A DNA stretch of 64,000 bases from Botryllus schlosseri. Its lineage: Eukaryota. Location of the stretch: assembly GCA_051294905.1 (NCBI GenBank), contig CM119371.1, forward strand, positions 6,076,001 through 6,140,000. Direction: 5' to 3'. Positions 11,931 to 30,337 of this stretch are shown here, one piece after another (the stretch's first letter is position 1; each line of letters starts with the position of its first letter). The notes under the pieces were generated by a model. It did not search any database and had not been told where the DNA came from. It worked only from the letters and a program-made list of their open reading frames with translations. Both the position numbers and the translations under genes were made by a program.

Positions 11931-12351
11931 ATTTTTCCGATTCTTAAAGTACGTGGTCGTGTCTTGAAAATCCGCGTCTTCGTTTTGATATGAACGAGGA
12001 GTGCCGAAAACCATTTCCGCAAAGATAGATGGATGCTAATCCAAGATTAACGCATAACGCTTCCGACAATACTTTTGGTGTGATCGCAACATTTAGGGCA
12101 CCAAAATGAAGAAACATATATTTTATGAACATATCACGTCCAGCATCTAGCGCAGGGACAGGCCACATACGGACCGCGGGTCGAATTCGTTGTGCATCAT
12201 CCTTGCACACAATCAATAATTATAGTAAGCTTTTTTCTACATAGCAATCCCACTTGTGTCAAAATTTGTGTGAAGCGTTTTTTAGGTAACCTAGCAATTT
12301 TATCAAGTAGCCAGTACAATTTTTAAAAAAGTCATTTTTGAAACCCCTGGG

Positions 12352-12677
12352 AGTAGTAATAGATAGTGCATCGCGGTGCGGACCAATGGGCTTAGAGTAT
12401 TTAATTACGTGATATCTCTTAGCCAATCAGAACGCAGAACATTATGGGTGTGTTTCCAATACGAGAGAGGTTTTGGTTGTGTGAGAGATAGCATAGTTCC
12501 AGTTCAGTAACGCTGAGATTTTATGACATCATTATTGCGTAAGTTGATTACCTTCATTATTTATTCGCTGTGCGCTGTAGATCGAATATGTCCAAGATTA
12601 CTGCTAATGATATATACGTCATAATGAATCGGATTGACCCGATAAACTGGTATAGGTTCGCACGTGAAAAACTTGAG
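12352..12677 (+). repeat. Left terminal inverted repeat (326 bp)
   Basis: Reverse complement of 30013-30337 with 2 substitutions and 1 single-base indel. Confidence 0.97.
12383..12580 (+). promoter_or_regulatory. TIR-internal Pol II promoter and leader
   Basis: CCAAT boxes at 12383 and 12423 (AGCCAATCAG), Inr-like TCAGT at 12504, GTAAGT donor at 12539, TGTAG acceptor at 12580. Confidence 0.55.
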
Positions 12678-12869
12678 CTATCTGACAATGAAATCGCCGA
12701 ATGTCAATACATGGATTGCTACAACTTAACTGAGCAACGCTATCAAATGATACAGTTATGGATACGTAAAAATGGTCGTTACGCTACGATGAAAAAACTT
12801 GAAGAATTAGTTTACAGTTGTCTGTATCAGATACCTTCGAATAGCAATTCAACTCTTCTGTTGGATTGA
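12588..12869 (+). CDS. Death-domain protein (93 aa)
   Basis: W.RFAREKLELSDNEI...NLTEQRYQMIQLWIRKNGRYATMKKL fits the death-domain pattern (W..L.R.L.LS..EI...EQ..QML..W....G..AT...L). First 30 codons lie in the TIR. Confidence 0.8.
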   Translation: MSKITANDIYVIMNRIDPINWYRFAREKLELSDNEIAECQYMDCYNLTEQRYQMIQLWIRKNGRYATMKKLEELVYSCLYQIPSNSNSTLLLD

Positions 12870-12918
12870 AAGACATAACGTACTAAGCGAAAAATAATAT
12901 TGTGTGGACTGAAGGATA

Positions 12919-13083
12919 ATGAAGATGCTCTCAGAAGACTTCAACATTGGTTTATTCGTAATCATATGCTCGTGTATACGAAACGGGTATTGCTTTTACA
13001 TCGCAAATCAAAAAAAGGACTCTGATATCGAGGAAGTATACCAAGATCTGAAAGAAGCTCTACACCTTCATCTGAACGATTAG
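12919..13083 (+). CDS. Small orphan ORF (54 aa), not in the ORF track
   Basis: ATG...TAG, MKMLSEDFNIGLFVIICSCIRNGYCFYIANQKKDSDIEEVYQDLKEALHLHLND; AATAAA at ~13110. Confidence 0.3.
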   Translation: MKMLSEDFNIGLFVIICSCIRNGYCFYIANQKKDSDIEEVYQDLKEALHLHLND

Positions 13084-13345
13084 TTAATATGCTTGTTCGT
13101 TATTACTTCAAATAAACTGAACATGTGTATTTAATTGTGTAAAATGTGTTATAAAAGTCAGTCTACGGAAGTGAATAGACAAGTCTGAAGCTGTCTATAT
13201 TGCAGCGTATTAGAGATAGATTGTGCAATAACCTCTAAATACGGAGAGTACTGAACTTGAGTCAGTGATCTGCTTATAAACACAATGCCGCGCTCTCTCT
13301 CTCTCAACGGTGCTAACCCTCCTATGTTAGAGCAATTAAATTATT

Positions 13346-13561
13346 ATGCTACCTGGAAGTTTATCAGCACTGAAACTCATTGAACTCGACACAACAATCA
13401 CAATCACAGGAAGCTTTTATTTCGACGCACATAGCAATAAAACGAATACAATTGATATCGCATTGAGCGCGCTTCCGAGACAATTCAAAATTGTTGAGAA
13501 TTGCTTGGCATCCATCTGCGATACCCGTATTGCGTATTACCATTTGGAAAAGCTCCATTAG
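13346..13561 (+). CDS. Possible small orphan (71 aa)
   Basis: ATG start with upstream TATAAA (~13275), but it overlaps the 3' end of the opposite-strand ORF. Confidence 0.2.
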   Translation: MLPGSLSALKLIELDTTITITGSFYFDAHSNKTNTIDIALSALPRQFKIVENCLASICDTRIAYYHLEKLH

Positions 13562-14045
13562 CATTGCTAGCATTCTGGAAACTTGCATTGGCATTTGACA
13601 TGCCACCAGCATTCGAATACCCAGCATTTCCAAAGCCAGCATTGGCATTTGGAAACCCCGCTTTAGCGCGATCCATAGGCTGTATTTGACCATTAGGCGC
13701 AATAAAACGCGACGTGTCTTGTAAAATCCACCCCAGCGGTGAATTTTCTACGTCATTGACGACGTTAGACGGAGAATATAATGTATATTCATCAGCGAGA
13801 TTGATTTGCTGAAAGTATTCGACGCCTTCTCGAGTATAACACGCAACCAGTTTCCCGTTATGACTTAAAGTTGCTTTGAATCTTTGTATGGCACCATTCG
13901 TTGGAAACACACGTAGTTGTCCAGGATCAATCAATTGATCGTCTGCAGTTTCAATTCGAAGCTTCGATACGTTATTGAAAACGTAAACATCTCTCCGAAT
14001 AGCTATTTCTGAGAGTTGCGACTCGGCCCGAATAGCGATAGACAT
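13485..14045 (-). CDS. Orphan protein with N/A/G/F low-complexity C-terminus (186 aa)
   Basis: ATG ORF directly downstream of the BIR gene; beta-rich N-half; tail GFPNANAGFGNAGYSNAGGMSNANASFQNASNANGAFPNGN. Confidence 0.7.
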   Translation of the reverse strand: MSIAIRAESQLSEIAIRRDVYVFNNVSKLRIETADDQLIDPGQLRVFPTNGAIQRFKATLSHNGKLVACYTREGVEYFQQINLADEYTLYSPSNVVNDVENSPLGWILQDTSRFIAPNGQIQPMDRAKAGFPNANAGFGNAGYSNAGGMSNANASFQNASNANGAFPNGNTQYGYRRWMPSNSQQF

Positions 14046-14079
14046 AATTCAATCTAAACAAAACGTATACATTAAAGAT

Positions 14080-14466
14080 TCAACGGAAACTGTTATGCGG
14101 TATACGAATAAGCACGTTGCGAAAGAACTTTGAATCCTTTGCTAATTTCATGATCAGGGGACAGGAAGGATTGAGTGTAGCATGCTCGCTCCAAACATTT
14201 GTACAATTTGTCAAGTTATCAAACAATTGCCCACACATATAGCACTTGGCATGGAAATCGAACCCTAAGTGGAATAGCCCGCAAGTTGCGAGTTCAAAAG
14301 CATCAACTCTGAGATTCTCTTTATGAGATTCGAATGATTGCAAGCGTCGATCGAAATTCATTTTAGGAAAGACAGGGTGATTTAATAAATCACAAGGTTC
14401 ATATAGTATCTCGTCCTCTGAATTCTTCATGCATTGATGCGTTCCACACGGCTTGATCTTTTCCAT
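14080..14466 (-). CDS. Single-BIR IAP/survivin-like protein (128 aa)
   Basis: RRLQSF...ELATCGLF...KCYMC...WSEHATLNPSCP: CxxC...H...C zinc ligands with BIR spacing; TATAAAAA at 14508-14515. Confidence 0.9.
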   Translation of the reverse strand: MEKIKPCGTHQCMKNSEDEILYEPCDLLNHPVFPKMNFDRRLQSFESHKENLRVDAFELATCGLFHLGFDFHAKCYMCGQLFDNLTNCTNVWSEHATLNPSCPLIMKLAKDSKFFRNVLIRIPHNSFR

Positions 14467-14544
14467 GTTTCTTGAATAGAACTGAAATTATGGACTAGCT
14501 ACTGAGGTTTTTATAGAGCTGAGCGTGTGCTTTTCCCTGATTTT

Positions 14545-14885
14545 TTTGAATCTTAAATTTAAAAATGACTGCTTCGAAATCTCGAACGTTGTACAACTGT
14601 TTCGCAACTTTCAACTATCGCAGTTTCAAATTCAAAAAATTCAAAATCACGGCTGTTTCGCAGCTGTTATTTTTGAAATTTAAAAATGATTGATCGATTT
14701 CTCGGTCGTTGCACAACTGTCGACTGCTGCCGATTTAAATTCAACGTTCTGAAATCACGCCTGTTTCACAGCTGTTATTTTTTAAATTTAAAATGATTGA
14801 ATATCACGAATGCAACTGTCGATTACTGCAGTTTCAAATTCATTGAAATCACGGCTGTTACGCAGCTGTTTCGCAGCTGTCAACT
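14545..14885. repeat. Three degenerate ~110-bp tandem repeats in the divergent intergenic region
   Basis: Recurrent AAATTTAAAAATGA(C/T)TG and AAATCACG(G/C)CTGTT(T/A)C(G/A)CAGCTGTT blocks. Confidence 0.75.
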
Positions 14886-15110
14886 AGCGTGGGATAGTTT
14901 CATAGCTGGATACAATCATGTGTTATACTATGATCGCGAACAGTACTGGGGGCTTACAAACTCACGTGAATACCTGTGCATTGGAACTTAAGTCCAAGGC
15001 TCTCAGCCAACCTAGTAGGTATTTACGGCATTTTGCCTCAGCTATGCAAGTAGTATTTAGAGATAGCAGTGATATCCAATAAGTCATTTGCGTTTTTTGA
15101 TATTTTAGAG

Positions 15111-15620
15111 CAGAGGTCTCAAACACGCGTCCTGCGAGGTCATTTTATGCAACCGCGATGGTATTTTGAATTTCGAAGTATTCGACAATATTTAACTTTG
15201 AAAACTGGAAATTCACCCTAAAACAACTCCAGAAGCCTGAAACTACTTATCAAATGTCACTATTACGTCACTTTGAAAAGTTACGACGCAATGGAAGATC
15301 AATGTATACTTCGGCGATAGGACATTATTTCTATTGCTATGACACAGTAATCATTATATTCAAGTTGTTATAGATCTGTTCTAATATTCAGAGGTAAATC
15401 CAATGCTGATTGAATTTGAATTAGGTAATAACATGATCAATACCATCGTTATCCTGAGTATGCACGAAACTCGGATTAGGCTGTAGTGTCCATTAGCTAC
15501 AAAATTATAACGCGACAGCTTTTACGATTAATTATTGATGCTGCGACTCGCGGTGCCATCAAAAAGTAAGAAATTTGCATGCAAATTTGCCCGCGGGCGC
15601 ATATGATTTTGAGTCCTCTG
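15111..15620. mobile_element. Charlie-like hAT MITE inside the Polinton
   Basis: TIRs CAGAGGTCTCAAA / TTTGAGTCCTCTG, subterminal GCCCGCGGG; 8-bp flanks TTTTAGAG / CTGTACGG match only 4/8. Confidence 0.75.
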
Positions 15621-15760
15621 CTGTACGGGATCAACTAAGTTCGTGCAGGTGCGTTTTGTTATTGTTGAGCACAGCTATTATTAGTGAATAGATTTTCAAC
15701 GGTTTAGATACGCTAGATATTCGAATACGCGACTTGACTTTAGTTAGTATCATATTGAGA

Positions 15761-17035
15761 ATGAATACTGTGCAAGTCGCTAACGAGATGAATCAAGTCG
15801 CTAATGACAATGCGAGTTGTAGTACGACTCAAGTTGACGTGATTGACCTCACTGGTGATGATAGCAGTAAAGGTAAATCGACCAACTCGATTGAAAGTTT
15901 TGATTGGCAAAACACGCAACCTTTTGTTAAAATTCATCGTGTGGATGAGAATCTACAGAGTGAAGAACCTCCAGTCAAAATTCGTTGTACGGAAGCGACG
16001 TGTGCAGAGATACGCAAAATTATGAAAGATGGTTATTTTGGTGTAGCGCCTGCAAACAAGCGAGAAGATACACAAACAGCGATGTTAAGTGGCTTGTCTG
16101 ATGATGATGATTCGAGTTCGACGATGATATCGAATATTAGATCGTTAGCTAGTGATCAAAGTGCCTCGTCTGATTCTGATTCAACAAATGACGTATCCTC
16201 GGTTGATAGTGATCGTCGACGCTCTATGATTTCTGTTATTCGACTGTTGCGCGAATCCAATACGAGTGAAATTCTGCCAAGTGAATATAGGAGCGATCGA
16301 AAATTCATTAAAGTGATCGAAAAGTTAAGTCCTCAACCCACGATTCAAAATGCTAGTTGTATGTATTCTGCACTTGAAAAAAATATCACCGAAATTTGGT
16401 ATGCCGGCCAAATGCGTAGTCTTAATTTCCTCAGAGCTGTATTCGTTGTTTGCATCTTTGAAGGTTATGTTCGCCGCAGAGATATAGCCCCGAATTTTTG
16501 GTTTGAGGGTGATTGTCATTCTGGTAAAGACATACTGACTCATATGTTTTTGACTAGAGATGTAGCAAACTATGTATTGAGTACTTTGGAAAAGTTGGAT
16601 GCATTCAGATATTACGATGCTGACAAATCTATTTGCATGTTTCCGAATTGCGGTAGTATTTTCATGAATAATGCTGTTCTCCAAGAAACTATTATGACAG
16701 TACAACGCACAGCTGTGAGCTGTGATTATGGCTTGATTAAGCCTGCCTCTTTCTGGATGTTTTGTGATGTGAAAAATGGTTCTGAGATCATGACTGAAAA
16801 GTATCCACTATCATTTGCCGGAAAAACTATTATCGTAAAATTTGGAAATAAACTTTTCGATCCGTCAGTAGAAGTGTTGAATGATCACGGTCGCGATACT
16901 GTTCTGTATTCGTTATTGAATCTTACTTCAGTAAAAACTCGCGATGCAGGCAATGAAGTAGAAACTGATATGCATGCAACGAGTTTCTATGATAAATTTC
17001 GTGAAATCAAACGTGTTTACGACGAATGTGAATGA
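15761..17035 (+). CDS. Orphan protein (424 aa), acidic/Ser-rich disordered N-half with SIM-like motif
   Basis: Long ORF, first ATG at 15761; VDVIDLTGDD; SDDDDSSS tract; globular-looking C-half. Confidence 0.8.
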   Translation: MNTVQVANEMNQVANDNASCSTTQVDVIDLTGDDSSKGKSTNSIESFDWQNTQPFVKIHRVDENLQSEEPPVKIRCTEATCAEIRKIMKDGYFGVAPANKREDTQTAMLSGLSDDDDSSSTMISNIRSLASDQSASSDSDSTNDVSSVDSDRRRSMISVIRLLRESNTSEILPSEYRSDRKFIKVIEKLSPQPTIQNASCMYSALEKNITEIWYAGQMRSLNFLRAVFVVCIFEGYVRRRDIAPNFWFEGDCHSGKDILTHMFLTRDVANYVLSTLEKLDAFRYYDADKSICMFPNCGSIFMNNAVLQETIMTVQRTAVSCDYGLIKPASFWMFCDVKNGSEIMTEKYPLSFAGKTIIVKFGNKLFDPSVEVLNDHGRDTVLYSLLNLTSVKTRDAGNEVETDMHATSFYDKFREIKRVYDECE

Positions 17036-17133
17036 ATTTGATGCATGTTGATTCAGTACTAATTCAATATTTTGATGCATGCGTGTCGATACAGTGCTAA
17101 TTGGATCTTTTTTTGTGTTGTTTGTAGCTCAGT

Positions 17134-17544
17134 ATGGATAACTTCATTGACATAAGCGACTTGTTAGATATGAACGCACCTCATCAAAGTGTAAATGCTA
17201 CGATGCAGGCTCCAAGAAAAGACTTGAACAAAATATATCAGAGTCAAAAAGAAAGCCGAAAGCGCTCGCGTCAAGACACTATGTCTTTGATCGAAGGTCT
17301 AGTTGACGATGATTTAAAGATGGAAGCTATGTGGAATCAACTTGTTTCGATGGAAGTATTTGACCAAGACTATTCGAAAAATTTTCTGAACATAATTAAA
17401 AATGTCATGAAAGATATTGAAAAACTATCTAGTGACTCGAACGCTTGCATTGTTGAGATTCAGCGTCTTGAAAAAATTAAGTTTGTATTTCTATACGGTG
17501 TAATTAAATGTAAACTGCGCTTGAAATATGGATTCAATTTCTAA
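17134..17544 (+). CDS. Orphan helical protein (136 aa)
   Basis: ATG ORF filling the gap before polB; pyrimidine-tract/AG acceptor 6 nt upstream. Confidence 0.7.
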   Translation: MDNFIDISDLLDMNAPHQSVNATMQAPRKDLNKIYQSQKESRKRSRQDTMSLIEGLVDDDLKMEAMWNQLVSMEVFDQDYSKNFLNIIKNVMKDIEKLSSDSNACIVEIQRLEKIKFVFLYGVIKCKLRLKYGFNF

Positions 17545-17592
17545 TATATGTAGTGACTATTGTCTTGATATTTTTCAGATACTAGTATCTAT

Positions 17593-20500
17593 ATGGCGCG
17601 ACGCAGGCGATATGGAGATCGAGGATTTGTGGTCGACGAAACGCTGGGTTTCGAACAAGACGGCATTGAGGTGATTGAAAGACACTACGATTCCATCATC
17701 GATTCGACCTGGACTTCAAGGAACAATGTGCAAGAAATCATCAACATTCGAATGGTCGGAAGAGCTCCGCTCGAAATTCACGCGCGTATAGCAGACATTT
17801 ACCCCAGAAGATACCGTCAGTTTAAAATGAATCTGGCGTATGGCTTTCTATTATTCAACCGTGAGACATCCAGATATAGTTATTATCATCCTCAGAGTTC
17901 ACAAGCGGTTTTTAATGTCCCTAAAACTATCATATCGCGTGAAGATTTCGATACCGTCACGAATGAGATCGATTTGACAGCGGGTTTTGAATATGCAAAT
18001 CGAGTGCGACCAGATACAAAGTTCTACTGTGCTGATGTGTTGCATATTTCTATTTACATTTATGAAATGGATAGAGCTTTACTCGGTGGAAGTACTTCCA
18101 TTTCCCCGGAGATGCAAGCACTAAGCAAATGTAACTATATCATGACTTTCCTGCGTAATCGCGAAGGCAAAGCATATGCAGATTCTCTGTGCATATTCAG
18201 ATCCATTTCATATGTGATGAAAAAAGCGCGTAATGAAACACATGTTCTGCAATTAGCCGCTCAATTCACAGCTCGTTACGATATCTCAACTGAGAACGGA
18301 GTAGCTTTCGAAGACTTATCAAAAGTTGAGGAATGTTTTCAAGTTCGAATACTGCTTTATGAAAAACGTAATCAAGGCACAGTTATGCTGCGTAATTCTC
18401 GTGCTAATGGATTGACTATACCTATTCATAGACTTGAAAATCACTGTTGCCTGATTAGGGACCTGAAATTGTACACCTCTACCTATATGTGTGATAAGTG
18501 TAAATTTTTCTTTACTAGAAAAGATGCTTTGATGAGGCATATGAAAAGCGTTGATTGTGAGCGTCCCCAAAAACAGCGATACGGTTTCGGTATTTATCGT
18601 CCTAAGATGACGGTGTTTGAGCGAATGGCGGAACAGGGAATTTTGGTTAGTACTGAAAAACGATATTACCCCTTCAGAATCGCTTATGATTTCGAGAGTT
18701 TATTAGAAAAAGAAAATCTTCGAGCTGATACACCGAAAGTCGAAATTGTCAACAAGCATGTTGCGGTATCGGTATCTCTCTCAGATAATGTTACGAATGA
18801 AACGCATACACTCATTTCTAGCGGTGATCCTAACGTTTTAATTAACGATATGGTGGGCAAACTGTATGAGATTCAAAACATCGCATCTTTGCATATGCGA
18901 CGGTTATTTGAAAAAGAATTGAAAGATTTTCGTATGCTAATTGAACGTCGTAATGCGATTGAACCAGGCAAAACTCGCTATTTAGATCGCTTGTATCGTC
19001 ACTTCGAAATTTGGTTGGATCAAATACCTGTGATTGGATTCAACTTGGCTCGTTACGATTTGAATCTTTGTAAAAAATATTTGATTCCTATTCTGCAAGA
19101 AGAAAGTGGATTTTTCGTTTTGAAACGGAACAGCGCATATCTGACTATTAGTACCAACAGATTGAAATTCCTTGACATTTCGCTATTTCTGTCACCGGGA
19201 TATAGTTTGGAAGCGTATTTGAAAATTTATGGAAATGGTGTGGACAACAAATTTTATTTTCCCTATGAGTACATGACTTGTATCGATAAATTGAATGACA
19301 CGCAATTACCTCCACATGAAATGTTCTATAGCAGTCATCGAGGCACTAATATCACCGCGGCGCAATACCAAGAATGTGTCGATATGTGGAATCGTTTGCA
19401 AATGAAAACCATGCGAGACTTCCTAACTTTTTATAACGAAAGTGACGTGATTGGCTTTTTGGTTGCGTTAGGTAATAACGCTGCCTTTTACCAAAACTTG
19501 GGTATTGACATGTTCAAATCTGCTATCAGCTTACCAAACATAGCCAATCAACTCATGTTCGCGGAATGTTACGACATCGCGCTGTTCAGTAAAGCGAATG
19601 CTGATCTCCATCAAACTGTAGTGAACAATCTATTTGGAGGTCTGTCACAGATATGTTCACGATTTGCAATGAAAGACGTAACGAAAATTCGTGAAATGCG
19701 CTACGGAGATGATGCGAAATACGTAAAAAAGATAATAGGATATGACGCAAATTCGCTCTATTTGTCATCCATTGATCAATACATGCCGTGTGGATTTCCA
19801 ATCAGGTGGTTGTATGACGCAACCAAACAAAAATTTCACAGAAAGCCAATTTATCCTGCGATGGCAGAACTCGAATGGCTGACTTATGAAAGTTATCAGC
19901 GCGGTATTTCAATTCAACACGCCTGGAACGGCAAGCAAGCTCGTCTTGGGTCGCGTCAAATTGCGGTCGATGGCTTCTCCCTTGAGCATCAATTGATATT
20001 TCAGTATCAGGGGTGTTTTTTTCATTCGTGCGATCAATGTTATAAGGACGCCGCAAACATTGAGCGACGTATTAAAACAGAAGAAATTACTGCCTATTTC
20101 GAAGAGTTGGGATACACGATAATATCAATACGCGAATGTGAATGGAATCGCATGAAACTCCACCCTGACATTGCGCAGTTTCTTTCGTCACTACAAAGAA
20201 ATGTAACAAAAGAGTATTATCTCACAGCGGACCAACTATTAGATCGCGTATTTCATCAACAGTTCTTTGGCGCATTAGAAGTCGATGCGCACTGCCCTGA
20301 TGAATTAAAAGAAAAATATTCAGAATTTCCGCCATTTTGTAAACATATCTCGGTAGATATATGCGATATCGGCGAACATATGAGCGAATATGCCCGCGAA
20401 AATAATGTGAAATTTCCGAAGACGTTTTTGGGCTCTAGTTATTTCACTGAGAAACAACTAATTACAAGTGATTTGTTGGCTTGGTACATGGATCACGGTA

Positions 20501-21459
20501 TGATTATTTCGCGCATATATCAAGCTGTGGAATTTGAACGCAAACGACCATTTCAAAAGTTTGTGAATTCTGTTGTTACGCAAAGGCGAAAAGGTGATAT
20601 CACGCCTAAAGACCCAGCACGTGAAATAGAGGCCTTAACCTTTAAATTTTTAGGAAATGCCGCTTTTGGGTCTACTATACAGAACCCAACGAAGTACAGA
20701 AATCATACCTATGTAAAAAGTGATAAGTTGAAATCACATATTCAGAAAAAAAACTTTATTGACGTCAATGAACTCTCTGAAGATCTGTTCGAGGTTAGCT
20801 CGTTACCAGATTCCATTAACGTCGATCAACCGATCATTGTAGGTTTATTCATCTTCAATTCGAGTAAATTACGCATTCTTTCGTTTCTGTATGACTTTTT
20901 ACATGAGTATGTAGAGGAATGTGACTTCAGCTACATACAAGGAGATACCGACAGCGAATATTTTAGTATTTCAGCTGATTCAATCTACTCCTTAATTAAA
21001 CCTTCACGAAGGAAAGAATTTTTTCAAGTTCATGATGAATGGCTCATACAGAGAGCTTGCGCGATGCATCGGGCAGACTTTGAGCGTGACCCAATCGCTT
21101 TCAAAACCACCGAACCGTGCTGTATCGCTGCTTACAATTATGCTAAACGAATTCCTGGTCTGTTTAAAGTAGAATGGGAGGGTCTGAAGTTCATTGGATT
21201 GAACTCGAAAACCTATTACTGCGAGGGTGAGACTGATAAATATTCATCCAAAGGTTTGAGTAAATCCGCTTGTAAGACCTTCAAGGATTTTGAAGGAGTG
21301 TTGCAAAACCGTACATCTTGCGGAGGTATTAATTCTGGGTTTCGCACCTTCAATGGGGATATCTATACTTATAAGCAATATCGTTCTTCTTTGTCGTATG
21401 GTTACTATAAAAGAGTTGTTTTGGCAGATGGCATACATACTGTACCGCTTTCATTGTAA
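17593..21459 (+). CDS. polB: Protein-primed family B DNA polymerase (1288 aa)
   Basis: ExoI AYDFES, ExoII GFNLARYD, ExoIII YNESDV, PolA GYDANSLY, PolB KFLGNAAFG, PolC GDTDS; C2H2-like finger and Vsr-like insert. Confidence 0.97.
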   Translation: MARRRRYGDRGFVVDETLGFEQDGIEVIERHYDSIIDSTWTSRNNVQEIINIRMVGRAPLEIHARIADIYPRRYRQFKMNLAYGFLLFNRETSRYSYYHPQSSQAVFNVPKTIISREDFDTVTNEIDLTAGFEYANRVRPDTKFYCADVLHISIYIYEMDRALLGGSTSISPEMQALSKCNYIMTFLRNREGKAYADSLCIFRSISYVMKKARNETHVLQLAAQFTARYDISTENGVAFEDLSKVEECFQVRILLYEKRNQGTVMLRNSRANGLTIPIHRLENHCCLIRDLKLYTSTYMCDKCKFFFTRKDALMRHMKSVDCERPQKQRYGFGIYRPKMTVFERMAEQGILVSTEKRYYPFRIAYDFESLLEKENLRADTPKVEIVNKHVAVSVSLSDNVTNETHTLISSGDPNVLINDMVGKLYEIQNIASLHMRRLFEKELKDFRMLIERRNAIEPGKTRYLDRLYRHFEIWLDQIPVIGFNLARYDLNLCKKYLIPILQEESGFFVLKRNSAYLTISTNRLKFLDISLFLSPGYSLEAYLKIYGNGVDNKFYFPYEYMTCIDKLNDTQLPPHEMFYSSHRGTNITAAQYQECVDMWNRLQMKTMRDFLTFYNESDVIGFLVALGNNAAFYQNLGIDMFKSAISLPNIANQLMFAECYDIALFSKANADLHQTVVNNLFGGLSQICSRFAMKDVTKIREMRYGDDAKYVKKIIGYDANSLYLSSIDQYMPCGFPIRWLYDATKQKFHRKPIYPAMAELEWLTYESYQRGISIQHAWNGKQARLGSRQIAVDGFSLEHQLIFQYQGCFFHSCDQCYKDAANIERRIKTEEITAYFEELGYTIISIRECEWNRMKLHPDIAQFLSSLQRNVTKEYYLTADQLLDRVFHQQFFGALEVDAHCPDELKEKYSEFPPFCKHISVDICDIGEHMSEYARENNVKFPKTFLGSSYFTEKQLITSDLLAWYMDHGMIISRIYQAVEFERKRPFQKFVNSVVTQRRKGDITPKDPAREIEALTFKFLGNAAFGSTIQNPTKYRNHTYVKSDKLKSHIQKKNFIDVNELSEDLFEVSSLPDSINVDQPIIVGLFIFNSSKLRILSFLYDFLHEYVEECDFSYIQGDTDSEYFSISADSIYSLIKPSRRKEFFQVHDEWLIQRACAMHRADFERDPIAFKTTEPCCIAAYNYAKRIPGLFKVEWEGLKFIGLNSKTYYCEGETDKYSSKGLSKSACKTFKDFEGVLQNRTSCGGINSGFRTFNGDIYTYKQYRSSLSYGYYKRVVLADGIHTVPLSL

Positions 21460-21463
21460 TAAA

Positions 21464-22084
21464 ATGAACCGTGCACGTGTTTTATACTCGCCTCTTCGTA
21501 TGATAATTAGTGGAGCTTCGTGCAGTGGAAAAACAGTTTTTGCCTATAGAATCGTACAAAATGCTAACAAGCTAATCGTACCTCGACCGAGAAAGATCAT
21601 CTGGTTATATAATAACTATCAACCGTTGTACGACAAGATGCAAGGAGTGACATTTTACAAGGGCCTAGACAAATTGAAAGATTTACAGAGAGCTAAAGAT
21701 GAACATACGTTAATTGTGTTAGATGACATGATGACAGAAGCAAGTCAAGTACGTGAACTGTTCATTAGAAAAAGTCACCACCTGTCACTCTCAGTTTTAT
21801 ATTTATGTCAAAATCTATTTCACCGAGGAGCAGGCTTCCGTGATATTACGCTGTCTAGCAACTATATAGTCATCATGAAAAATCCTCGTGATTCTGCACA
21901 GATTCGATATCTGTCACGTCAAATGTTCCCAGATAAACCAAACCTTCTCACGGAAGCTTACAAGAGAGCAACTCGTAAGGCTTATTCATATATCCTGGTC
22001 GATTTGACGCAGGAAACATCCGAACAGTATCGACTTCGCAGCAACATTTTTCCAAGCGAACGTATGACCGTGTATTCGGAATAA
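21464..22084 (+). CDS. A32-like DNA packaging ATPase (206 aa)
   Basis: Walker A GASCSGKT, Walker B LIVLDDM, RKSHH, IVIMKNPRD, Y.Y+LVDL.Q. Confidence 0.95.
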   Translation: MNRARVLYSPLRMIISGASCSGKTVFAYRIVQNANKLIVPRPRKIIWLYNNYQPLYDKMQGVTFYKGLDKLKDLQRAKDEHTLIVLDDMMTEASQVRELFIRKSHHLSLSVLYLCQNLFHRGAGFRDITLSSNYIVIMKNPRDSAQIRYLSRQMFPDKPNLLTEAYKRATRKAYSYILVDLTQETSEQYRLRSNIFPSERMTVYSE

Positions 22085-22119
22085 ATAGCGCTGTACTCGA
22101 ACATTCACTATCATTCGCA

Positions 22120-22524
22120 ATGGCGAGGTCACGTGGTGTTTTGAAAAAAACTTTAAATAATCATCTTATCAAGTTGAAGTTGCTAAAGAGTGCTAAAAAG
22201 AAGGAACGTAACGAGCTATTAACTCACAAAGCTTTTACCGCCTGTGTGTGTGAGTGTCTTCGTAACCTTGTCTCGGGCAATATAGCTATTTCAAGTACGA
22301 GTAAGGCACGATTGAAGAAGTATAAAAGTAACATTCGCAAAGTGTTGTGCTGCAAATCTCAAAAACAGAAGCAAAAAACATTACAACAGGGTGGCTTTTT
22401 ATCAGGTGAATATACATGCGATTCGATTCGATTCATGATCTAACTTTAATGATTTATAGCGATCTTAAGTGCTGCGATTCCGATTATTGGAAGTCTGTTA
22501 GGCGGATTGACTAAACATGCGTGA
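22120..22524 (+). CDS. Spliced basic core protein, adenovirus pX/pVII-like (116 aa; exons 22120-22405 and 22460-22524)
   Basis: Removing a 54-nt GT...CTAAC...AG intron gives ...QQGGFLSAILSAAIPIIGSLLGGLTKHA*, like adenovirus pX GGFLPALIPII. Confidence 0.8.
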
Positions 22525-23080
22525 ATTGTACTTTCCTCCTTTACAATCAAAAGACGCCTACGAAAAGAAATTCAATGAACATATCGCTAGCATCAGGGAC
22601 TCTGATTTGACACGCATCGAAAAATTAGCACTATTTCAACACGGCATTAGACTATTGAGAAACCTACGTGCGAATAAGAAATCGATCAAGTCGTCGACCC
22701 GCGCACCGCCAGCGGCCGCTACCAATGAAACAATTAGCGCGTCGAAACCGCCCGGAGCGGCGCTCGCTATTAATAACACATTTGACGCGACACCTCCGTC
22801 GACGCCCGAGATTTGGAGCAATTACGAAGCAGTAACTCCACCCCATACGCCTAAAACTTCAAAGAAAAAGGTTAAAAAGAAGAAGAAAGCCACTCCGTCC
22901 GCAACACCCGAGATTTGGAGCAATTACGAAGCAGTAACTCTACCCCATACGCCTAAAACTTCAAAGAAAAAGGTTAAAAAGAAGAAGAAAGCCAATAAAC
23001 CTCCTGTTAATTGGCAAAGCATTGACGGTCCGCGCAAACGAAAGCCGAATCAACGCTACACAGGAAAGTTATGGACATGA
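22517..23080 (+). CDS. Lys/Pro/Thr-rich protein with 34-aa duplication (187 aa)
   Basis: ATG ORF; repeat TPEIWSNYEAVT(P/L)PHTPKTSKKKVKKKKKA; stop overlaps integrase ATG (ATGA). Confidence 0.8.
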   Translation: MRELYFPPLQSKDAYEKKFNEHIASIRDSDLTRIEKLALFQHGIRLLRNLRANKKSIKSSTRAPPAAATNETISASKPPGAALAINNTFDATPPSTPEIWSNYEAVTPPHTPKTSKKKVKKKKKATPSATPEIWSNYEAVTLPHTPKTSKKKVKKKKKANKPPVNWQSIDGPRKRKPNQRYTGKLWT

Positions 23081-24090
23081 CGCTAGCTAACAAGAGAGAC
23101 TATTTCGATCCCCGCAAACCAAACTCCTATAGAGGAGCTTATTTACAGAATGACAAAGAATGGTTGAAATCAGAACAAAGTTATACCCTGCATTTTCCTA
23201 TACGAAAAAAATTTACTCGCGAGAAGGTGGTGGTCTCTGGAATTGATAGTCAGTTTCAAAGCGATTTGATTGATGTGCAGTCTATTTCTAAATACAATCG
23301 TGGATTTAGATATCTGGCTTTGGTTATTGATACGTTTTCAAAGTTTGTGTGGTTGATTCCAATTAAAGATAAAACTGGTCGCAGTATGATTTCTGCTTTC
23401 CGACAAGTGTTCAATGAGAGGCTGCCTTTAGTGTTGCAGACTGATAGAGGTACAGAATATACCAATCGAGCTTTTCAAAACTTTCTCAAGAAAAATAAAG
23501 TTCGTTACTTTTACACAAAAAGCGAATTGAAATCGTCTCAGGCCGAGCGTTGGATTCGCACTTTCAAGGCAATCTTGTACCGCTATTTCACGAAGAATAA
23601 CACCAGTAAATACATCGACGTGCTGCAGGATTTCGTATATTCCTACAATCACACTAAACATACGTCGTTAGGTATGGCTCCAAGTCAAGTCAATTCACAT
23701 AATCAAGAAGCTATTTGGCAAAAAATGTATGGGTTTCGACAAGCTACACTTCCCACTCTGACGAAAGGAACAGCCGTACGCATTTCGAAAATTCGCGGGC
23801 TTTTTGAAAAGAGCAGTAGACCCAATTGGACAACTGAGATATTTTATATCATTGACGCAATGGCTGGCGACCCTCCGATGTATCGCTTGCGTGACTATAA
23901 TCATGACGTTATCGATGGTAGGTTTTACAGAGAAGAACTACAGCTGGTGACCGAACCTACAGAGTGGCGTATCGAAAAGATTATAAAGACACGTCAACGC
24001 GCCAAACACCGTCAGTATTTAGTTAAATGGATAGGATATGGAGCAGAGTTCAACTCCTGGATCGATCAAAAAGATATCGTCAAACCGTAA
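23071..24090 (+). CDS. int: Retroviral-type (rve) integrase with C-terminal chromodomain
   Basis: QSDLID, LQTDRGTE, AERWIRT (D,D,E); chromodomain IEKII...YLVKWIGYGAEFNSW. Start at 23071 or 23077. Confidence 0.96.
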   Translation: MDMTLANKRDYFDPRKPNSYRGAYLQNDKEWLKSEQSYTLHFPIRKKFTREKVVVSGIDSQFQSDLIDVQSISKYNRGFRYLALVIDTFSKFVWLIPIKDKTGRSMISAFRQVFNERLPLVLQTDRGTEYTNRAFQNFLKKNKVRYFYTKSELKSSQAERWIRTFKAILYRYFTKNNTSKYIDVLQDFVYSYNHTKHTSLGMAPSQVNSHNQEAIWQKMYGFRQATLPTLTKGTAVRISKIRGLFEKSSRPNWTTEIFYIIDAMAGDPPMYRLRDYNHDVIDGRFYREELQLVTEPTEWRIEKIIKTRQRAKHRQYLVKWIGYGAEFNSWIDQKDIVKP

Positions 24091-24250
24091 CTTTTATCAG
24101 TTCATCGCTCAAGTCGTGGTTATACTAATCATAGTGATTTTTTCACTCTACAATTTGACAATCGTTCAAGAAAACAAGGAGCTTTGGGTATCGTTATTAT
24201 CATCGTGTGTGGGTTATATGTTACCAGCTCCAAAAATACCTAAACTATGA
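24038..24250 (+). CDS. Small membrane protein (70 aa)
   Basis: Hydrophobic FIAQVVVILIIVIFSLYNL and WVSLLSSCVGYMLPAP; stop overlaps the next ATG (ATGA). Confidence 0.65.
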   Translation: MEQSSTPGSIKKISSNRNFYQFIAQVVVILIIVIFSLYNLTIVQENKELWVSLLSSCVGYMLPAPKIPKL

Positions 24251-25086
24251 GTTATGTGACGTTATTTTCGAATGGTTCTATGGATATGTTTCCTGACAAT
24301 ACAACCGCACAATATGTCAATGAAATACAGACGGCTAGAAATGTAGAGAGAAATGAGATCGCTCTGACGGAGATCAGTTTTCCTAGAGATTTTGAAAAAC
24401 GTATCGAGTCACGTGCTTCTTTCGGATTCGAAATTACGGGTTTCGAACAAAGCTTTAGGAGATTTAGGTTGAAAACTGGACAATATGACTCGCTCTACGC
24501 CATGTTTAAAACCTTGGAAAGTATCAACCCTGATGTAGCAGTAAACTGTTTTCCTGAGAGCAACACCCTAACTGTGTCAATTCCACACGAAGACAGCACA
24601 GATATCTTATATCCTGGAGTGGATACGCGATATAGTATCGTGACCAGAGAGAACGATTATACAGCAACGTTGAAGAATATAGAAACTCCAGATGCCTACA
24701 CTCTCGCGACTTTCACATTACCAAATACAGCAGCGCTATCCGCATACTCTTTCTCAAAGAAAAAAATACATTTCAATTTCGATATAACACCCGTACCATC
24801 AATTGACTTTGTATACGTTCATTGCGATATTATTGAACCGCAAGAATTCAATGGTACATTACAGCGCCTATTGCGAGTGGTGAAAGTCGAGGGAGATAAG
24901 AAGGCGTTTTCCAAATACTACATAAAGCCTTTCTTCTTCCCTGTAAATATAAATAGATTGGAACGTATAAAAATATCTTTGTTAGATGTCAATGGTGTAA
25001 AAATTCCATTTCGGAGTGCACCGTCTATAGTGCCGTACTGCAATTTCGAAAGCGTGCTATTGCGTTATGAAATACATCCACATTAG
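24247..25086 (+). CDS. Minor capsid (penton-like) protein 1
   Basis: YVTLFSNGS.DMFPDNT, EIALTEISFP, YVHCDIIEPQ, LLRVV, IKISLLDVNG; possible frameshift near 25033. Confidence 0.85.
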   Translation: MSYVTLFSNGSMDMFPDNTTAQYVNEIQTARNVERNEIALTEISFPRDFEKRIESRASFGFEITGFEQSFRRFRLKTGQYDSLYAMFKTLESINPDVAVNCFPESNTLTVSIPHEDSTDILYPGVDTRYSIVTRENDYTATLKNIETPDAYTLATFTLPNTAALSAYSFSKKKIHFNFDITPVPSIDFVYVHCDIIEPQEFNGTLQRLLRVVKVEGDKKAFSKYYIKPFFFPVNINRLERIKISLLDVNGVKIPFRSAPSIVPYCNFESVLLRYEIHPH

Positions 25087-25816
25087 CAGTTCGAAATCGG
25101 ATTTTGTAGTTGACTTAGCACGCCCCATCACTGGAAAATGGGAGTTGGGGCTTGCGGAATTTTCAGTTCGTAATCAGTTTCAAACTACTTTACCGCATTT
25201 CAATGGATTGTTATGGGAATTTCAAGAGGAAAAATCATCTGCTCTGTTGGCAACGCAAAGCAATAATTATTTTTTCTATCCAAATGGGGATTATTATGAT
25301 TTCAAAAGCTTGATCGATAGAATCAATCGTAGTCAGACAAAGGTATGGATAAATCAGCTGTCAAGTTCAACAGCTATGCTAGTCATTCCCCCTAGCGAAG
25401 CAGGTGCCTTTCCGAATTTCCGAAGAAATCCAAAGAGAATCAGAAACCCGGTTTTCGTATATGGGAATCTTAAAGAACAAAATTTACCGCAAGGAAAATA
25501 TTTAACTTCGCAAATGTACCTGCGAAATGATATTGAACCTATCAGTAATTTATTGGTCTATACCGATCTCATTCGACCGCAAACAGTCGGTGATACGAAT
25601 GCACCACTATTGCGAAATATCCCTATAACAGCAGCTAACAATGAATACCAACATCACATTTTTGAGAAAATCTACTTTTTCCCTATGATCACGGAATATG
25701 CCAATCGAATTAGAATTAGTATTAGAGACGATAAAGCGGAATCTATAAATCTGAATGGTTCTGTAGTTCATATCACACTTGCTTTACGTCACGATGAGGG
25801 CACATTACTGTTGTGA
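25067..25816 (+). CDS. Minor capsid (penton-like) protein 2
   Basis: SDFVVDLARPITGKWELGLAEFS, VYTDLIRPQTVGDTNAPLLRNI, IRISIRDD. Confidence 0.85.
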   Translation: MKYIHISSSKSDFVVDLARPITGKWELGLAEFSVRNQFQTTLPHFNGLLWEFQEEKSSALLATQSNNYFFYPNGDYYDFKSLIDRINRSQTKVWINQLSSSTAMLVIPPSEAGAFPNFRRNPKRIRNPVFVYGNLKEQNLPQGKYLTSQMYLRNDIEPISNLLVYTDLIRPQTVGDTNAPLLRNIPITAANNEYQHHIFEKIYFFPMITEYANRIRISIRDDKAESINLNGSVVHITLALRHDEGTLLL

Positions 25817-26162
25817 TCGTGAAGCTTTTCAACACTATTATCGAAATCAAAGCGGAGCGGGCATAAACTACTTTCGAGGTCGAGTGCAAAGAGGTCACGG
25901 TCTAGGTAATCTATTTCGTAGTTTGGGACGTAGTGTGGTTCCCTTGATTTCCAAAGGAGCGAAAGCTCTGGGTAGACAACTACTTCACACTGGGGCTGAA
26001 GTCGCGTCTGATGTATTGGGAGGACAAAACATCGGCGAAAGCTTTAAAATCAGAGGAAATCAAGCTGCTAGTCAAGCACTTGATAATTTCCTGGGAAAGA
26101 GAAAAGCACCTAGAAAGAAAAATACCAAACGGAAAAAACGTCGTCGGGATATTTTTGATTAA
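25794..26162 (+). CDS. pVI-like / membrane-active internal virion protein (122 aa)
   Basis: YYRNQSGAG, QRGHG followed by amphipathic LGNLFRSLGRSVVPLISKGAKALG; basic tail. Confidence 0.75.
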   Translation: MRAHYCCDREAFQHYYRNQSGAGINYFRGRVQRGHGLGNLFRSLGRSVVPLISKGAKALGRQLLHTGAEVASDVLGGQNIGESFKIRGNQAASQALDNFLGKRKAPRKKNTKRKKRRRDIFD

Positions 26163-26212
26163 ATACAAATAGTAAGCCTTCCTCTTTTCATTTACAAGTA
26201 GACTCGCGGAAC

Positions 26213-27490
26213 ATGACGGAGCTGATTCATAGCAAATCTGCTGAAGGTATTCATCCGTCTTTAGATCTTTACCAGATACCACCTACTCAGACGAGTGTAG
26301 AGAAAATACGTATCATCAAGATACCTCCTGTTTCGGACAATGAGAGCGTTATAACTTTCAGATATGAGGGGTGTGGAGATTTCATAGATCTAAGCGAATC
26401 TTATTTTTTATTTCGTCTGAAACTGCTGAACGGCGATGCGGATTTAGTCGCAAATGATGATATTGGTGTTGTCAATAACATTTTAGATTCAATGATTTCA
26501 CAACTTCACATTAAAGTTGGAAATCACACGATCAAGCAGGATATTAAACTACAAGCGTATTCGGCCTACTTGAACTATCTGTTCGCCCCACAAGACGTAC
26601 AAACGTCAACTCTTTTGACACAGGGTTGGGTCAAGGATACCCCTGAGCAATTAGATGATAAAGCTATAGGCGATGATGCAGCTAACAAAGGTCACAACGC
26701 GAGAAGTTTGCCTTATGCAACCAGTAAAGTTGTTGAAATAAGAGGTCGAATACATCACGGATTATGCTTACAAGACCGTTACATTCTGGATGAGGTACCC
26801 TTGGAGTTCGAACTCACTTTGAACCCGAAAAGTTTTTTTCTGTTTGGATTGAATACTAGCAATTTCAAAATAATTAAAAAAGAGCTGCAATTGTGCGGCG
26901 TGAAAGTAAGCGAAGATGTGAAATCCGCAATGATGGTCGATGCTCCAGCTAGATATCCGTACATGGACATGAAACTTCTGAGCAGAACTTTCGCAGCTAA
27001 CACCACTCAAATCGATATTGGTAATCTGTATTCGGGTACTCTACCGACTCGTTTAATCATCGGTATGGTAGCGACTAGCGCATTCCAGGGTGCGTTCGAT
27101 AAAAATCCATACAATTTTATTCATAACAAAATGAAACGTGTCGAATTGAAAGTCAATGGTTTCCTGATACCGGAAGGTGGATACGAACTTGATTTTGAAA
27201 ACAATCACTATTCTGAAGCCTATCTCAACATGGTTCAAGGCATAGGAGCTCTCGAAAAACAGATCGGAGTCCTTACCCCGAAGGAATTCGCTAATGGATA
27301 TACTCTTCTAGTATATAACTTGCGAGCTGATGATCTAGACGACTGTTTCGAACTGCAGAAAAGCGGCACAGTTAGTCTGCGGATCACTTTTCCTGCTGAT
27401 GGTGTTGCGAGCGAAACAACTCTGCTTTGTTTCATGGAATTCCAAAAAATACTAGAAATAAGCCAAGGTCGCACGGTTACTATAATATGA
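26213..27490 (+). CDS. Major capsid protein (double jelly-roll, hexon-like; 425 aa)
   Basis: LDLYQIPPTQTSV, IDLSESY, NNILDSMISQL, PTRLIIGMV...FQG...NPYNF; lies before the protease as in Polintons. Confidence 0.93.
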   Translation: MTELIHSKSAEGIHPSLDLYQIPPTQTSVEKIRIIKIPPVSDNESVITFRYEGCGDFIDLSESYFLFRLKLLNGDADLVANDDIGVVNNILDSMISQLHIKVGNHTIKQDIKLQAYSAYLNYLFAPQDVQTSTLLTQGWVKDTPEQLDDKAIGDDAANKGHNARSLPYATSKVVEIRGRIHHGLCLQDRYILDEVPLEFELTLNPKSFFLFGLNTSNFKIIKKELQLCGVKVSEDVKSAMMVDAPARYPYMDMKLLSRTFAANTTQIDIGNLYSGTLPTRLIIGMVATSAFQGAFDKNPYNFIHNKMKRVELKVNGFLIPEGGYELDFENNHYSEAYLNMVQGIGALEKQIGVLTPKEFANGYTLLVYNLRADDLDDCFELQKSGTVSLRITFPADGVASETTLLCFMEFQKILEISQGRTVTII

Positions 27491-27939
27491 ACGGACTAGA
27501 AATAGATGAAATATTGTATAGTTACGATTCTACCAAACGACATTATCTAGGAAATTTTCCTATTGATCGACTTCCTCGGCGACCGAAACCTCCCTACTCA
27601 TTAATCATTAATTACGATGAGGCCGACGAACCAGGAAGTCACTGGGTATGCATCTACGCTGATGAACATGGAACTCATTTCCACGACAGCTTCGGTATAC
27701 CTCCGTTCAGAAATGAAATACCCTGTTTCCTAGAACCTGAAAAGTATACCAGTTCGATCAAACCATTACAGCACAAACGTTCAGAAGCTTGCGGAGCCCA
27801 CGCAATTTCATTCCTAAGCTGTCGCAGTGATGGCATGAGCACACTGTCTTATTTAGAGCACTTCGGAAAAGATAAGAAACACAACGACAGTATAGTCTGG
27901 GACTTTCTTCAAAAATTAAAACGAAATGCGAGCAAATAG
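27487..27939 (+). CDS. Adenain-like cysteine protease (150 aa)
   Basis: GSHW, HDSFG, LQ...CG (H-D-Q-C); ATG overlaps the MCP stop (ATGA). Confidence 0.95.
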   Translation: MNGLEIDEILYSYDSTKRHYLGNFPIDRLPRRPKPPYSLIINYDEADEPGSHWVCIYADEHGTHFHDSFGIPPFRNEIPCFLEPEKYTSSIKPLQHKRSEACGAHAISFLSCRSDGMSTLSYLEHFGKDKKHNDSIVWDFLQKLKRNASK

Positions 27940-28249
27940 CTTCACTGTCATACAGTACTTTGGTGATGATGAGAAGATTCAACTGAAAATCAGAGAAAAA
28001 GTCATTGTAATGAATCCTGAACGCATTCACAGACTTTCATTCGATAGCTTTCATATACGTATTTATCCACATGACCGAGATATTACATTATTCATTGGAA
28101 CTGATTGCTTACCTGTACGCTTTCCTAACCATTGTATGTACATAGACGTGTTATCGAAACATAGAATTGCTCAACAAATCAGTGAAGAATTTGTTGTTTT
28201 TCGTAGACTAAAAATCTGTGAATTTCTGACTAGAGCATCGCGTATATAA
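27926..28249 (+). CDS. Orphan protein (107 aa)
   Basis: ATG ORF overlapping the protease end; tight packing. Confidence 0.6.
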   Translation: MRANSFTVIQYFGDDEKIQLKIREKVIVMNPERIHRLSFDSFHIRIYPHDRDITLFIGTDCLPVRFPNHCMYIDVLSKHRIAQQISEEFVVFRRLKICEFLTRASRI

Positions 28250-28265
28250 GTCACAATATCTTTCT

Positions 28266-28376
28266 ATGGAACATGTCGATGATATCTTAGCTGTCGTGTT
28301 CATTGTTCTGCTTACTATTTGTTGTATACTGGAATGGATATCGTATTGCTGTCAAGAACAAGCTAGTGAAGCATGA
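28266..28376 (+). CDS. Small single-pass membrane protein (36 aa), not in the ORF track
   Basis: MEHVDDILAVVFIVLLTICCILEWISYCCQEQASEA*; stop overlaps the next ATG (ATGA). Confidence 0.55.
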   Translation: MEHVDDILAVVFIVLLTICCILEWISYCCQEQASEA

Positions 28377-28696
28377 CCATGGCTAGAATTTCCGTTGGTG
28401 CACAGTTTGATTCGAGTCGTAATTATGAAGAAATGATTGTATTACCTAACGTGAGATCAATTACCATTCCCTATACGTGTATACTTTTCCATTATGATAA
28501 TAGAATTGTAGTGAAACCCATAGAAGATTGTGTTACGCACTCGTCGCGTAATATCATTGTCTGTAAAGACGAACATTATCGTGTGCTTTATAAATCACCC
28601 TTAGTTATTGATTTCAAGGGTAAGGCAATTGTTGTTGGTAATATAATCCTATTCCAAGTGTTTTGGGATGGATGTGTTCGATTCATAACTCAATAA
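28373..28696 (+). CDS. Orphan beta-rich protein (107 aa)
   Basis: ATG ORF whose TAA stop is part of an AATAAA signal. Confidence 0.6.
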   Translation: MTMARISVGAQFDSSRNYEEMIVLPNVRSITIPYTCILFHYDNRIVVKPIEDCVTHSSRNIIVCKDEHYRVLYKSPLVIDFKGKAIVVGNIILFQVFWDGCVRFITQ

Positions 28697-28818
28697 ATCA
28701 CTGATTTCGACTCGTGTTCTTTTCTGTTCGGTCGTGTTTATCCTGAGGCGCATCCCTTAGCTAGTAGAGAAATGCAGATTCGTCAATAAACCTTCAGTTA
28801 CGTAGATTCGTCAATAAA
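28692..28818 (+). terminator. Three polyadenylation signals in short repeats
   Basis: AATAAA at 28692, 28785, 28813 within repeated (GATTCG)TCAATAAA(TCACTG). Confidence 0.55.
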
Positions 28819-28982
28819 TCACTGTTTCTAACTCGCGCTATTTATCATATAACCAACAAAGACACATTATGGAGTTTTTATTACAAAAGGTTGCGCGCAG
28901 TCTTTTCAAAGCACACCGTTGTGAGTGACAATCAAAAAATGATGATATTGCGTCAGTCATTAGCAATTCAACGGAAAAATAG

Positions 28983-29054: not shown

Positions 29055-29077
29055 AAGTGATAGTGACGGCTTAAGTG

Positions 29078-29900: not shown

Positions 29901-29954
29901 GGCTCTGAAGATAACAGTGAGCTCATGTGTACCAACCAAGTCAACGCAATACTT

Positions 29955-30012
29955 TTATAAGTGATACTACGCCACAAAATGCTTCCATCCGCCATTTTGT
30001 TCTATTCAATTT
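29955..30012 (-). pseudogene. Remnant C-terminus of a second Bcl-2 paralog
   Basis: 50/57 nt identical to the Bcl-2 3' end; reads N*IEQNGGWKHFVA*YHL*. Confidence 0.8.
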
Positions 30013-30337
30013 CTCAAGTTTTTCACGTGCGAACCTATACCAGTTTATCGGGTCAATCCGATTCATTATGACGTATATATCATTAGCAGTAATCTTGGAC
30101 ATATTCGATCTACAGCGCACAGCGAATAAATAATGAAGGTAATCAACTTACGCAATAATGATGTCATAATATCTCAGCGTTACTGAACTGGAACTATGCT
30201 ATCTCTCACACAACCAAAACCTCTCTCGTTTGGAAACACACCCATAATGTTCTGCGTTCTGATTGGCTAAGAGATGTCACGTAATTAAATACTCTAAGCC
30301 CATTGGTCCGCACCGCGATGCACTATCTATTACTACT
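30013..30337 (-). repeat. Right terminal inverted repeat (325 bp)
   Basis: Inverted copy of 12352-12677. Confidence 0.97.

Follow-up and report, generated by a model that had tools for sequence, protein, structure and literature searches.

A Polinton with death-regulator genes at its ends

An 18.0-kb Polinton occupies positions 12352-30337 of the window, by which we mean the whole 64-kb stretch of DNA that was analysed (Table 1). It is bounded by TIRs of 326 nt, which lie at 12352-12677 and 30013-30337 and differ by two substitutions and one indel, and by a 6-bp TSD, CCTGGG, in both flanks. The TIR ends (AGTAGT//ACTACT), the TSD, and Pfam matches to an rve integrase (PF00665, 1.8e-13) and an A32-like ATPase (PF04665, 4.7e-08) identify the element as a Polinton/Maverick. 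Its TIR length is within the range of 46-1447 bp given for Polintons in passages of two sources (PMC8097293, PMC8502044), and Bcl-2 and IAP homologues are already known in adintoviruses according to a passage of the second (PMC8502044).

Pfam recognised a death domain (PF00531, 1.3e-10) in the ORF next to the left end, hereafter DD, and a Bcl-2 domain (PF00452, 7.1e-18) in the ORF next to the right end; a search with the Bcl-2 protein returned one unnamed match. The capsid candidate matches PF21738 weakly, with an E value of 0.046 that is below the cut-off. A 1288-aa ORF at 17593..21459 on the plus strand is a putative protein-primed PolB, as judged by eye from its motifs, and no polymerase match for it was found in Pfam, PDB sequences or PHROGs. 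Neither ORF186 nor a 150-aa ORF matches a Pfam or PHROG profile; the letters between the AG and the ATG of ORF186 nearly match those preceding the DD ATG. A 54-codon ORF (12919-13083; 52 codons in siblings) lies behind DD, and a 125-codon ORF (29078-29455), kept in siblings, begins inside the 3' end of Bcl-2 in another frame. In sibling elements a ubiquitin-conjugating E2 ORF (L017:2739-3167 and L019; PF00179, 1.9e-47) stands behind ORF125; none is among the ORFs listed there in the window copy.

Over 75 aa, the DD protein (93 aa) shares 60% identity with the N-terminal death domain of a host DD-caspase; the named relatives of this caspase are those of Styela and Clavelina, which makes an ascidian the likely host. 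Long open frames with a death domain and a caspase are clustered in the host genome (L074:4338-6047 and L074:380-1945; G000:C8, ~2.35-2.40 Mb), and the Polinton DD is 60% identical to the prodomain of the first of these. The Polinton gene is likely a captured caspase prodomain, and, because of its 60% identity to the host prodomain, it likely acts as a decoy.

Outside the element, a 53-nt inverted repeat present in both flanks (12282-12334 and 30501-30553) is a high-copy host repeat that dominates the reads of the end bins. Further along the window, fragmented ORFs at 46105-49452 look by eye like the pol of an LTR retrotransposon, and there are large fold-back repeats at 55316-56914 and 36647-39721 (531-nt arms; nested TGACTCGAGTCA-rich arms).

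Table 1. Features of the element and its ends (window coordinates).
Feature	Position	Strand	Remarks
Left TSD, CCTGGG	12346..12351	.	right copy 30338-30343
Left TIR	12352..12677	+	begins AGTAGT; family-shared core about the first 205 nt
Start of DD gene in left TIR		+	last 90 nt of the TIR
CCAAT, TIR position 32	12383..12387	+	28/30 arms; at ~+30 in more distant families
E-box position	12406..12411	+	TACGTG in left arm; CACGTG at ~55 in 29/32 distinct arms
CCAAT, TIR position 72, in AGCCAATCAG context	12423..12427	+	30/30 arms
Third CCAAT	12456..12460	+	left arm only in window copy; 28/32 distinct arms
Inr-like TCAGT	12504..12508	+	10/32 distinct arms; CCAGT in most
Upstream ATG within proposed leader	12523..12525	+	3/32 arms; nearly private
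Proposed 42-nt intron	12539..12580	+	GTAAGT to weak TAG
Death-domain-only ORF (DD), 93 aa	12588..12869	+	Pfam
ORF186, 186 aa	13485..14045	-	AG 8 nt before ATG; family RNA present
BIR-only IAP-like ORF	14080..14466	-	TATA at -49, AG at -4
A32-like packaging ATPase	21353..22084	+	Pfam
rve integrase with chromodomain	23071..24090	+	Pfam
Putative double-jelly-roll capsid protein	26213..27490	+	E 0.046, below cut-off
Bcl-2-family ORF, 161 aa	29415..29900	-	Pfam
Acceptor-like site TTATCTTCAG	29905..29914	-	best-scoring of 16 AGs downstream of right donor
DD-derived ORF, 53 codons	29941..30102	-	first 30 DD codons in right TIR, then unrelated sequence
Duplicated piece of Bcl-2 3' end	29952..30012	-	carries TATAAAAG; also in L008/L009
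Right TIR	30013..30337	-	mirror motifs of left TIR
Right-arm mirror motifs	CCAAT 30306, 30266; TCAGT 30186; ATG 30167; GTAAGT 30151; AG 30110	-	

Moving borders and fixed motifs of the TIRs

The TIR has at least 88 matches in G000 (40 of 198 candidates were scored), Bcl-2 has at least 150 and DD 145, many of them as inverted pairs. Besides 30 TIR arms, the comparison covered the upstream regions of 25 other Bcl-2 genes (the 11 best matches, 12 chosen within the 68-74% group, and L008/L009) and those of 34 further close DD genes. The TSD is perfect in 11 of 13 arm pairs. TIR length is 326 nt in the window copy, about 251 nt in two sibling elements and at least 1700 nt in ten pairs. Among the long pairs, the DD start stands in both arms of L003-L007 and L010 and the Bcl-2 start in both arms of L008/L009; the borders of the TIR are thus mobile, and the window copy shows one such shift, which brought the beginning of DD into its right arm.

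Several copies depart further from this layout. L003-L012, L018 and L021-L029 are long-TIR or palindromic derivatives, in which the two arms are identical for 1700 nt or more and both contain a truncated beginning of DD or Bcl-2. In L037 and L042 a tandem duplication of the whole TIR core (positions 32-202) precedes Bcl-2. One non-TIR block, shared by L044, L045, L054, L055-L057, L060 and L063, stands upstream of DD in some of these copies and of Bcl-2 in others, the Bcl-2 version having a GTAAGT at -81; this sharing suggests gene swapping behind one promoter.

The first-pass annotation had proposed that both TIRs carry the same inward promoter and spliced leader, serving DD on the left and Bcl-2 on the right, and the CCAAT, TCAGT, GTAAGT, AG and ATG positions on which it built are all right in both arms. 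Host-factor motifs are found at fixed distances from the terminus, as in an ITR-type end promoter. The counts for the CCAAT boxes at 32 and 72 come from 30 arms, since the arms of the 32-arm set were picked by those motifs, which makes that set unusable for them. The terminus, a CCAAT near +30 and, to some extent, the E-box are retained in more distant families that carry DD; GTRAGT is absent between the candidate terminus and the DD ATG in five of seven such families (L067, L069, L071, L072 and L073). The TCAGT read earlier as the initiator of the promoter is present but occurs in only 10 of 32 distinct arms, and we rejected it as a conserved Inr. A scan of 2552 overlapping 236-nt windows (64 kb, both strands, TIRs included) for CCAAT..CCAAT..TCAGT..GTAAGT in this order gave 3 that contain it, and it occurs in 2e-5 of Markov resamples, a significance that is overstated because the pattern was chosen after the sequence had been seen. 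That both arms have the set counts as a single observation.

The donor-like GTAAGT at ~188 is found in all 32 distinct arms. Against a background of 107 invariant columns among the 161 of the core (66%), six invariant donor columns have a chance probability of about 0.09, and as a sign of a real donor the invariance is suggestive only. The GTAAGT overlaps TTGCGTAA, presumably a bZIP-type site, inside a unit that is repeated through a 200-600-nt array in other arms. In these arrays of sibling arms TGCGTA is followed by AGT 45 times, by TTG 41 times and by GTT 34 times, so that the donor is one variant of the repeated unit. There are 2-10 bZIP-like 8-mers per 600 nt in 28 other arms, one in each arm of the window copy, and 0.26 per kb outside the element. 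It is plausible, judging from the sequence, that the TIR holds an inward promoter.

Splice sites, TATA boxes and RNA at the two ends

The left intron proposed in the first-pass annotation joins the GTAAGT to an AG that ends at 12580, seven nt before the DD ATG at 12588. In 15 sibling arms the donor is distal: a stretch of 220-479 nt containing 5-16 ATGs separates it from the DD acceptor, and all 15 have a TATA at -48 to -55 of the DD ATG; over all 35 DD arms the TATA is found in 26 and a YAG, in four variant contexts, in 32. Compared with its nearest relatives, the window copy is without ~210 nt that comprise the repeat array and the TATA, and it is this loss that brought donor and AG to within 42 nt. 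The yardstick for host introns was a single gene, Prp8, on which the mapping of homologous proteins gave 34 distinct introns (a 35th call, of 338 nt, represented one of these introns a second time and was left out). The shortest are 56 and 62 nt, the next 119 nt and longer, and the 42 nt fall below all 34. The peak of short introns in Ciona is at 58-59 nt, as given in a passage of PMC10573349.

Splice sites were scored with matrices from the 34 host introns, leave-one-out for the host sites. At 4.4 bits the left donor falls below 32 of 34 host donors and ranks 123rd among the 1992 GTs of the element; the acceptor at 12580, at 1.6 bits, falls below 33 of 34 host acceptors (rank 358 of 1922). 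The ATG within the leader (12523/30167), which had been overlooked, is out of frame with DD whether the leader is spliced or not. The proposed 42-nt intron is a deletion product private to this copy.

At the right end, TTATCTTCAG would close a 247-nt intron at 29905, four nt before the Bcl-2 ATG at 29900. The site proposed earlier for a splice from 30151 is a good one: its AG scores 6.0 bits, within the host range (rank 72 of 1922), and an AG that good within 15 nt accompanies 16 of the 662 ATGs in the element. The CAG, however, is absent from 25 of 25 other copies, all of which have CAA. A cis-spliced leader common to both genes would have a conserved donor, which is found in 32 of 32 arms, and a conserved acceptor before each gene, which is not: the DD arms have YAG in 32 of 35, the other Bcl-2 copies CAG in 0 of 25. 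Instead of marking a shared spliced leader, the two junctions proposed for the window copy are probably accidental by-products of recent changes in that copy.

Among the other Bcl-2 arms, the 11 closest have their ATG at 272-578 nt from the terminus; the 80 nt before it contain no TATA and the 15 nt before it no AG. These sibling genes have no upstream sequence of the element other than the TIR and its array, and this is the strongest argument that the TIR is a promoter. For sibling Bcl-2 arms, an intron of 60 nt running from GTAAGT to GCGTAG would match the short introns of the host in size; we set it aside, since its acceptor reaches -5.6 bits (rank 1379 of 1922). In the window copy, TATAAAAG places a TATA at 29959, 59 nt before the Bcl-2 ATG, which the first-pass annotation had missed and which would offer Bcl-2 an unspliced route.

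RNA reads from three raw runs, sampled at 6, 13 and 3%, were mapped to 12000-30700 at 85% identity, giving 531, 393 and 1104 mapped reads; the X1 contigs were treated as DNA since their depth is flat over silent genes. Bin depth over DD is 10.1/7.3 (X10) and 0/7.1 (X4), over Bcl-2 2.2/3.1 (X6) and 2.1/0.4 (X4), and over ORF186, the most strongly covered element gene in X4, 37.8/0 (X4). The capsid and integrase genes are nearly silent, bins 21984-28223 having a depth of at most 0.46. The strand bias of X4 presumably reflects sense RNA, provided that second mates are sense. X10 depth rises between 12740 (5) and 12985 (42), a stretch that holds a strong AG (8.9 bits) at 12830. No RNA data set was listed as containing 29400-30337, a result that we do not count as evidence.

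With a listing threshold of three reads and low power, the three runs gave no joint at 12538>12581, 30152>30109 or 30152>29904. Leader depth is 8, 2 and 6 at 30157-30167 and 0 at 30229. The reads carry the window-copy allele at 0 of 21 sites; they match 15 of 15 alleles of the DD copies L044-L054, which have no TIR core within 1500 nt of DD, and 17 of 21 alleles of L014-L016. The RNA shows that the family's terminal genes are expressed, not where the window copy starts or how it is spliced, and it does not show TIR-driven transcription because the reads match DD copies without the TIR core. Of the first-pass annotation, the inward TIR promoter remains likely, with family anatomy and, weakly, family RNA in its favour; the shared cis-spliced leader finds no support.

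Possible routes of expression and known systems

We lean, somewhat above an even chance, towards a reading in which the TIR core is an ITR-like origin combined with an inward promoter, the splice junctions of the window copy are accidental, Bcl-2 is transcribed from its own TATA, and DD is made unspliced or trans-spliced, and more weakly. According to this model, a TIR block with CCAAT, E-box and bZIP-like repeats at fixed positions would fire inward at both ends, and in siblings the TIR would drive Bcl-2 directly, and DD by way of the array and a TATA. The window copy has neither the array nor the DD TATA, its right TIR contains a copy of the beginning of DD, and a separate TATA stands before Bcl-2. 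Bcl-2 would then start at this TATA without splicing, and DD would be made unspliced or through the AG at 12580 as an unpaired acceptor, probably at a lower level than in siblings. The DD decoy, the IAP and Bcl-2 would be expected to damp host cell death. Against this model, the invariant donor, the DD YAG and the 5-16 ATGs between them in siblings have the look of a real 5' intron, the AG at 29905 is of host quality and the best of 16 downstream AGs, and the conserved CCAAT boxes could serve replication alone.

The other readings are not all mutually exclusive. The AG before DD may be a trans-splice acceptor for a host spliced leader, in which case the stretch from TIR to AG would be discarded as an outron and the 42-nt spacing would be irrelevant; we regard this as a minority possibility. 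About half of Ciona genes are trans-spliced according to a passage of PMC1488885, 6 of 7 left-side and terminal genes (a set picked post hoc) have an acceptor-like AG no more than 15 nt from the ATG, as against 109 of 662 in the background, and ORF186 and BIR have such AGs with no TIR donor upstream. On the other hand, no host-leader read was found at 12581 among the read ends listed, the acceptor is weak, the donor upstream in siblings would favour cis-splicing, and the mechanism is inapplicable to sibling Bcl-2 genes, which lack the AG. Less likely again is that the leader is cis-spliced to DD over 220-479 nt in siblings, with Bcl-2 unspliced and the window copy damaged. Introns of this length are within the host size range, donor (32/32) and YAG (32/35) are conserved around the intervening ATGs, and paired acceptors prefer cis-splicing (a passage of PMC1488885). 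The donor, however, is kept even where DD is truncated or absent and overlaps the repeated bZIP-like unit, all 15 such arms have a TATA at 48-55 nt from the ATG on its upstream side, and the sibling acceptors score -2.3 to 2.0 bits. Reads from such transcripts would map as 12538>12581, and none are listed despite the depth of 8, 2 and 6 at 30157-30167.

We consider it doubtful, more so than either of these, that the TIR core is a replication and integration end only, with CCAAT and E-box as auxiliary origin sites and the genes driven by their own TATA or by read-through. The motif positions are indeed fixed from the terminus, like NF-I at nt 23-36 of the adenovirus origin (a passage of PMC6410123), the motifs are kept in gene-poor palindromic copies, and the DD reads in the RNA agree with copies that have no TIR core. 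For sibling Bcl-2 genes, however, the element offers nothing else upstream, and the 80 nt before the ATG are free of a TATA; the rise in RNA depth between 30229 and 30157-30167 is compatible with a start in between, with the caveat that this unit recurs elsewhere in the family. Still less probable is that the TIR is a true shared first exon, with one promoter and donor for both ends and with creeping borders, and that in the window copy a newly arisen acceptor allows Bcl-2 to be spliced past the piece of DD which the advancing border left in front of it; if true, it would be a case of compensatory splicing evolution in a virus-like element whose captured anti-death programme of DD decoy, IAP and Bcl-2 is run from its ends. 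Least probable of all is the full model of the first-pass annotation, with one TIR promoter and one leader exon cis-spliced to DD over 42 nt and to Bcl-2 over 247 nt. All its motifs are in place, its donor is invariant, and the AG at 29905 is the best in the right arm, of a quality met near only 16 of 662 element ATGs. Yet it needs an intron shorter than all 34 of the host, a low-scoring donor and 12580 acceptor, and a Bcl-2 CAG private to the window copy. Within 326 nearly identical nt the proximal AG must serve on the left and be skipped on the right; were it skipped on the left too, the best AG would be that at 12830, which removes most of DD. The spliced leaders would still hold an overlapping out-of-frame ATG, with A at -3 on the right, and neither junction is among the joints listed, at low power.

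The terminal genes recall known cargo. Prodomain-only caspase decoys and viral FLIPs are likewise lone death-fold domains closely related to a host caspase prodomain, and the window gene differs from them in being a death domain, not a CARD or DED, its decoy action being putative. BCL2-like cargo is described for planarian retrotransposons in a passage of PMC6431247. The acceptor AGs just before several start codons of the element resemble those of spliced-leader trans-splicing in Ciona (a passage of PMC1488885); unlike there, DD has only a candidate acceptor, and a donor lies upstream in most arms.

The transcription start of animal Polintons is barely described. The window element agrees with Polintons/Mavericks (adintoviruses) in its AGTAGT//ACTACT ends (PMC8097293), 6-bp TSD, 18.0-kb size, integrase and ATPase; passages of PMC8097293 and PMC8502044 are silent on TIR promoters or leaders and on a DD-only gene from a host DD-caspase. 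No paper on TIR promoters or leaders of animal Polintons was found in the open-licence literature at the level of listings, without supplements, and the supplementary gene maps of PMC8502044 may show similar terminal genes. The idea of an ITR-like promoter is directly testable, because the family has dozens of natural promoter variants and expressed terminal genes. The window copy also illustrates that single-copy splice motifs can be private accidents.

The host-factor origin sites of the adenovirus ITR are reportedly connected with work by Hatfield and Hearing in 1991. The ITR holds such sites, with NF-I at nt 23-36, according to a passage of PMC6410123, and in a passage on Ad2 ITR-initiated mRNAs have a donor at nt 146 and E4 joins a common 5' leader exon to alternative acceptors (PMC7851563). 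The likeness to the ITR and the E1A/E4 end promoters lies in host-factor sites near both ends, inward transcription and early genes at the ends. The window element differs in that it is integrated, carries CCAAT, E-box and bZIP-like motifs instead of NF-I and NF-III, and has a TIR that absorbed coding sequence, and its start and junction are predictions. If the ITR-like promoter is real, the known adenovirus design would extend to an integrated relative, a result that would be useful rather than surprising.
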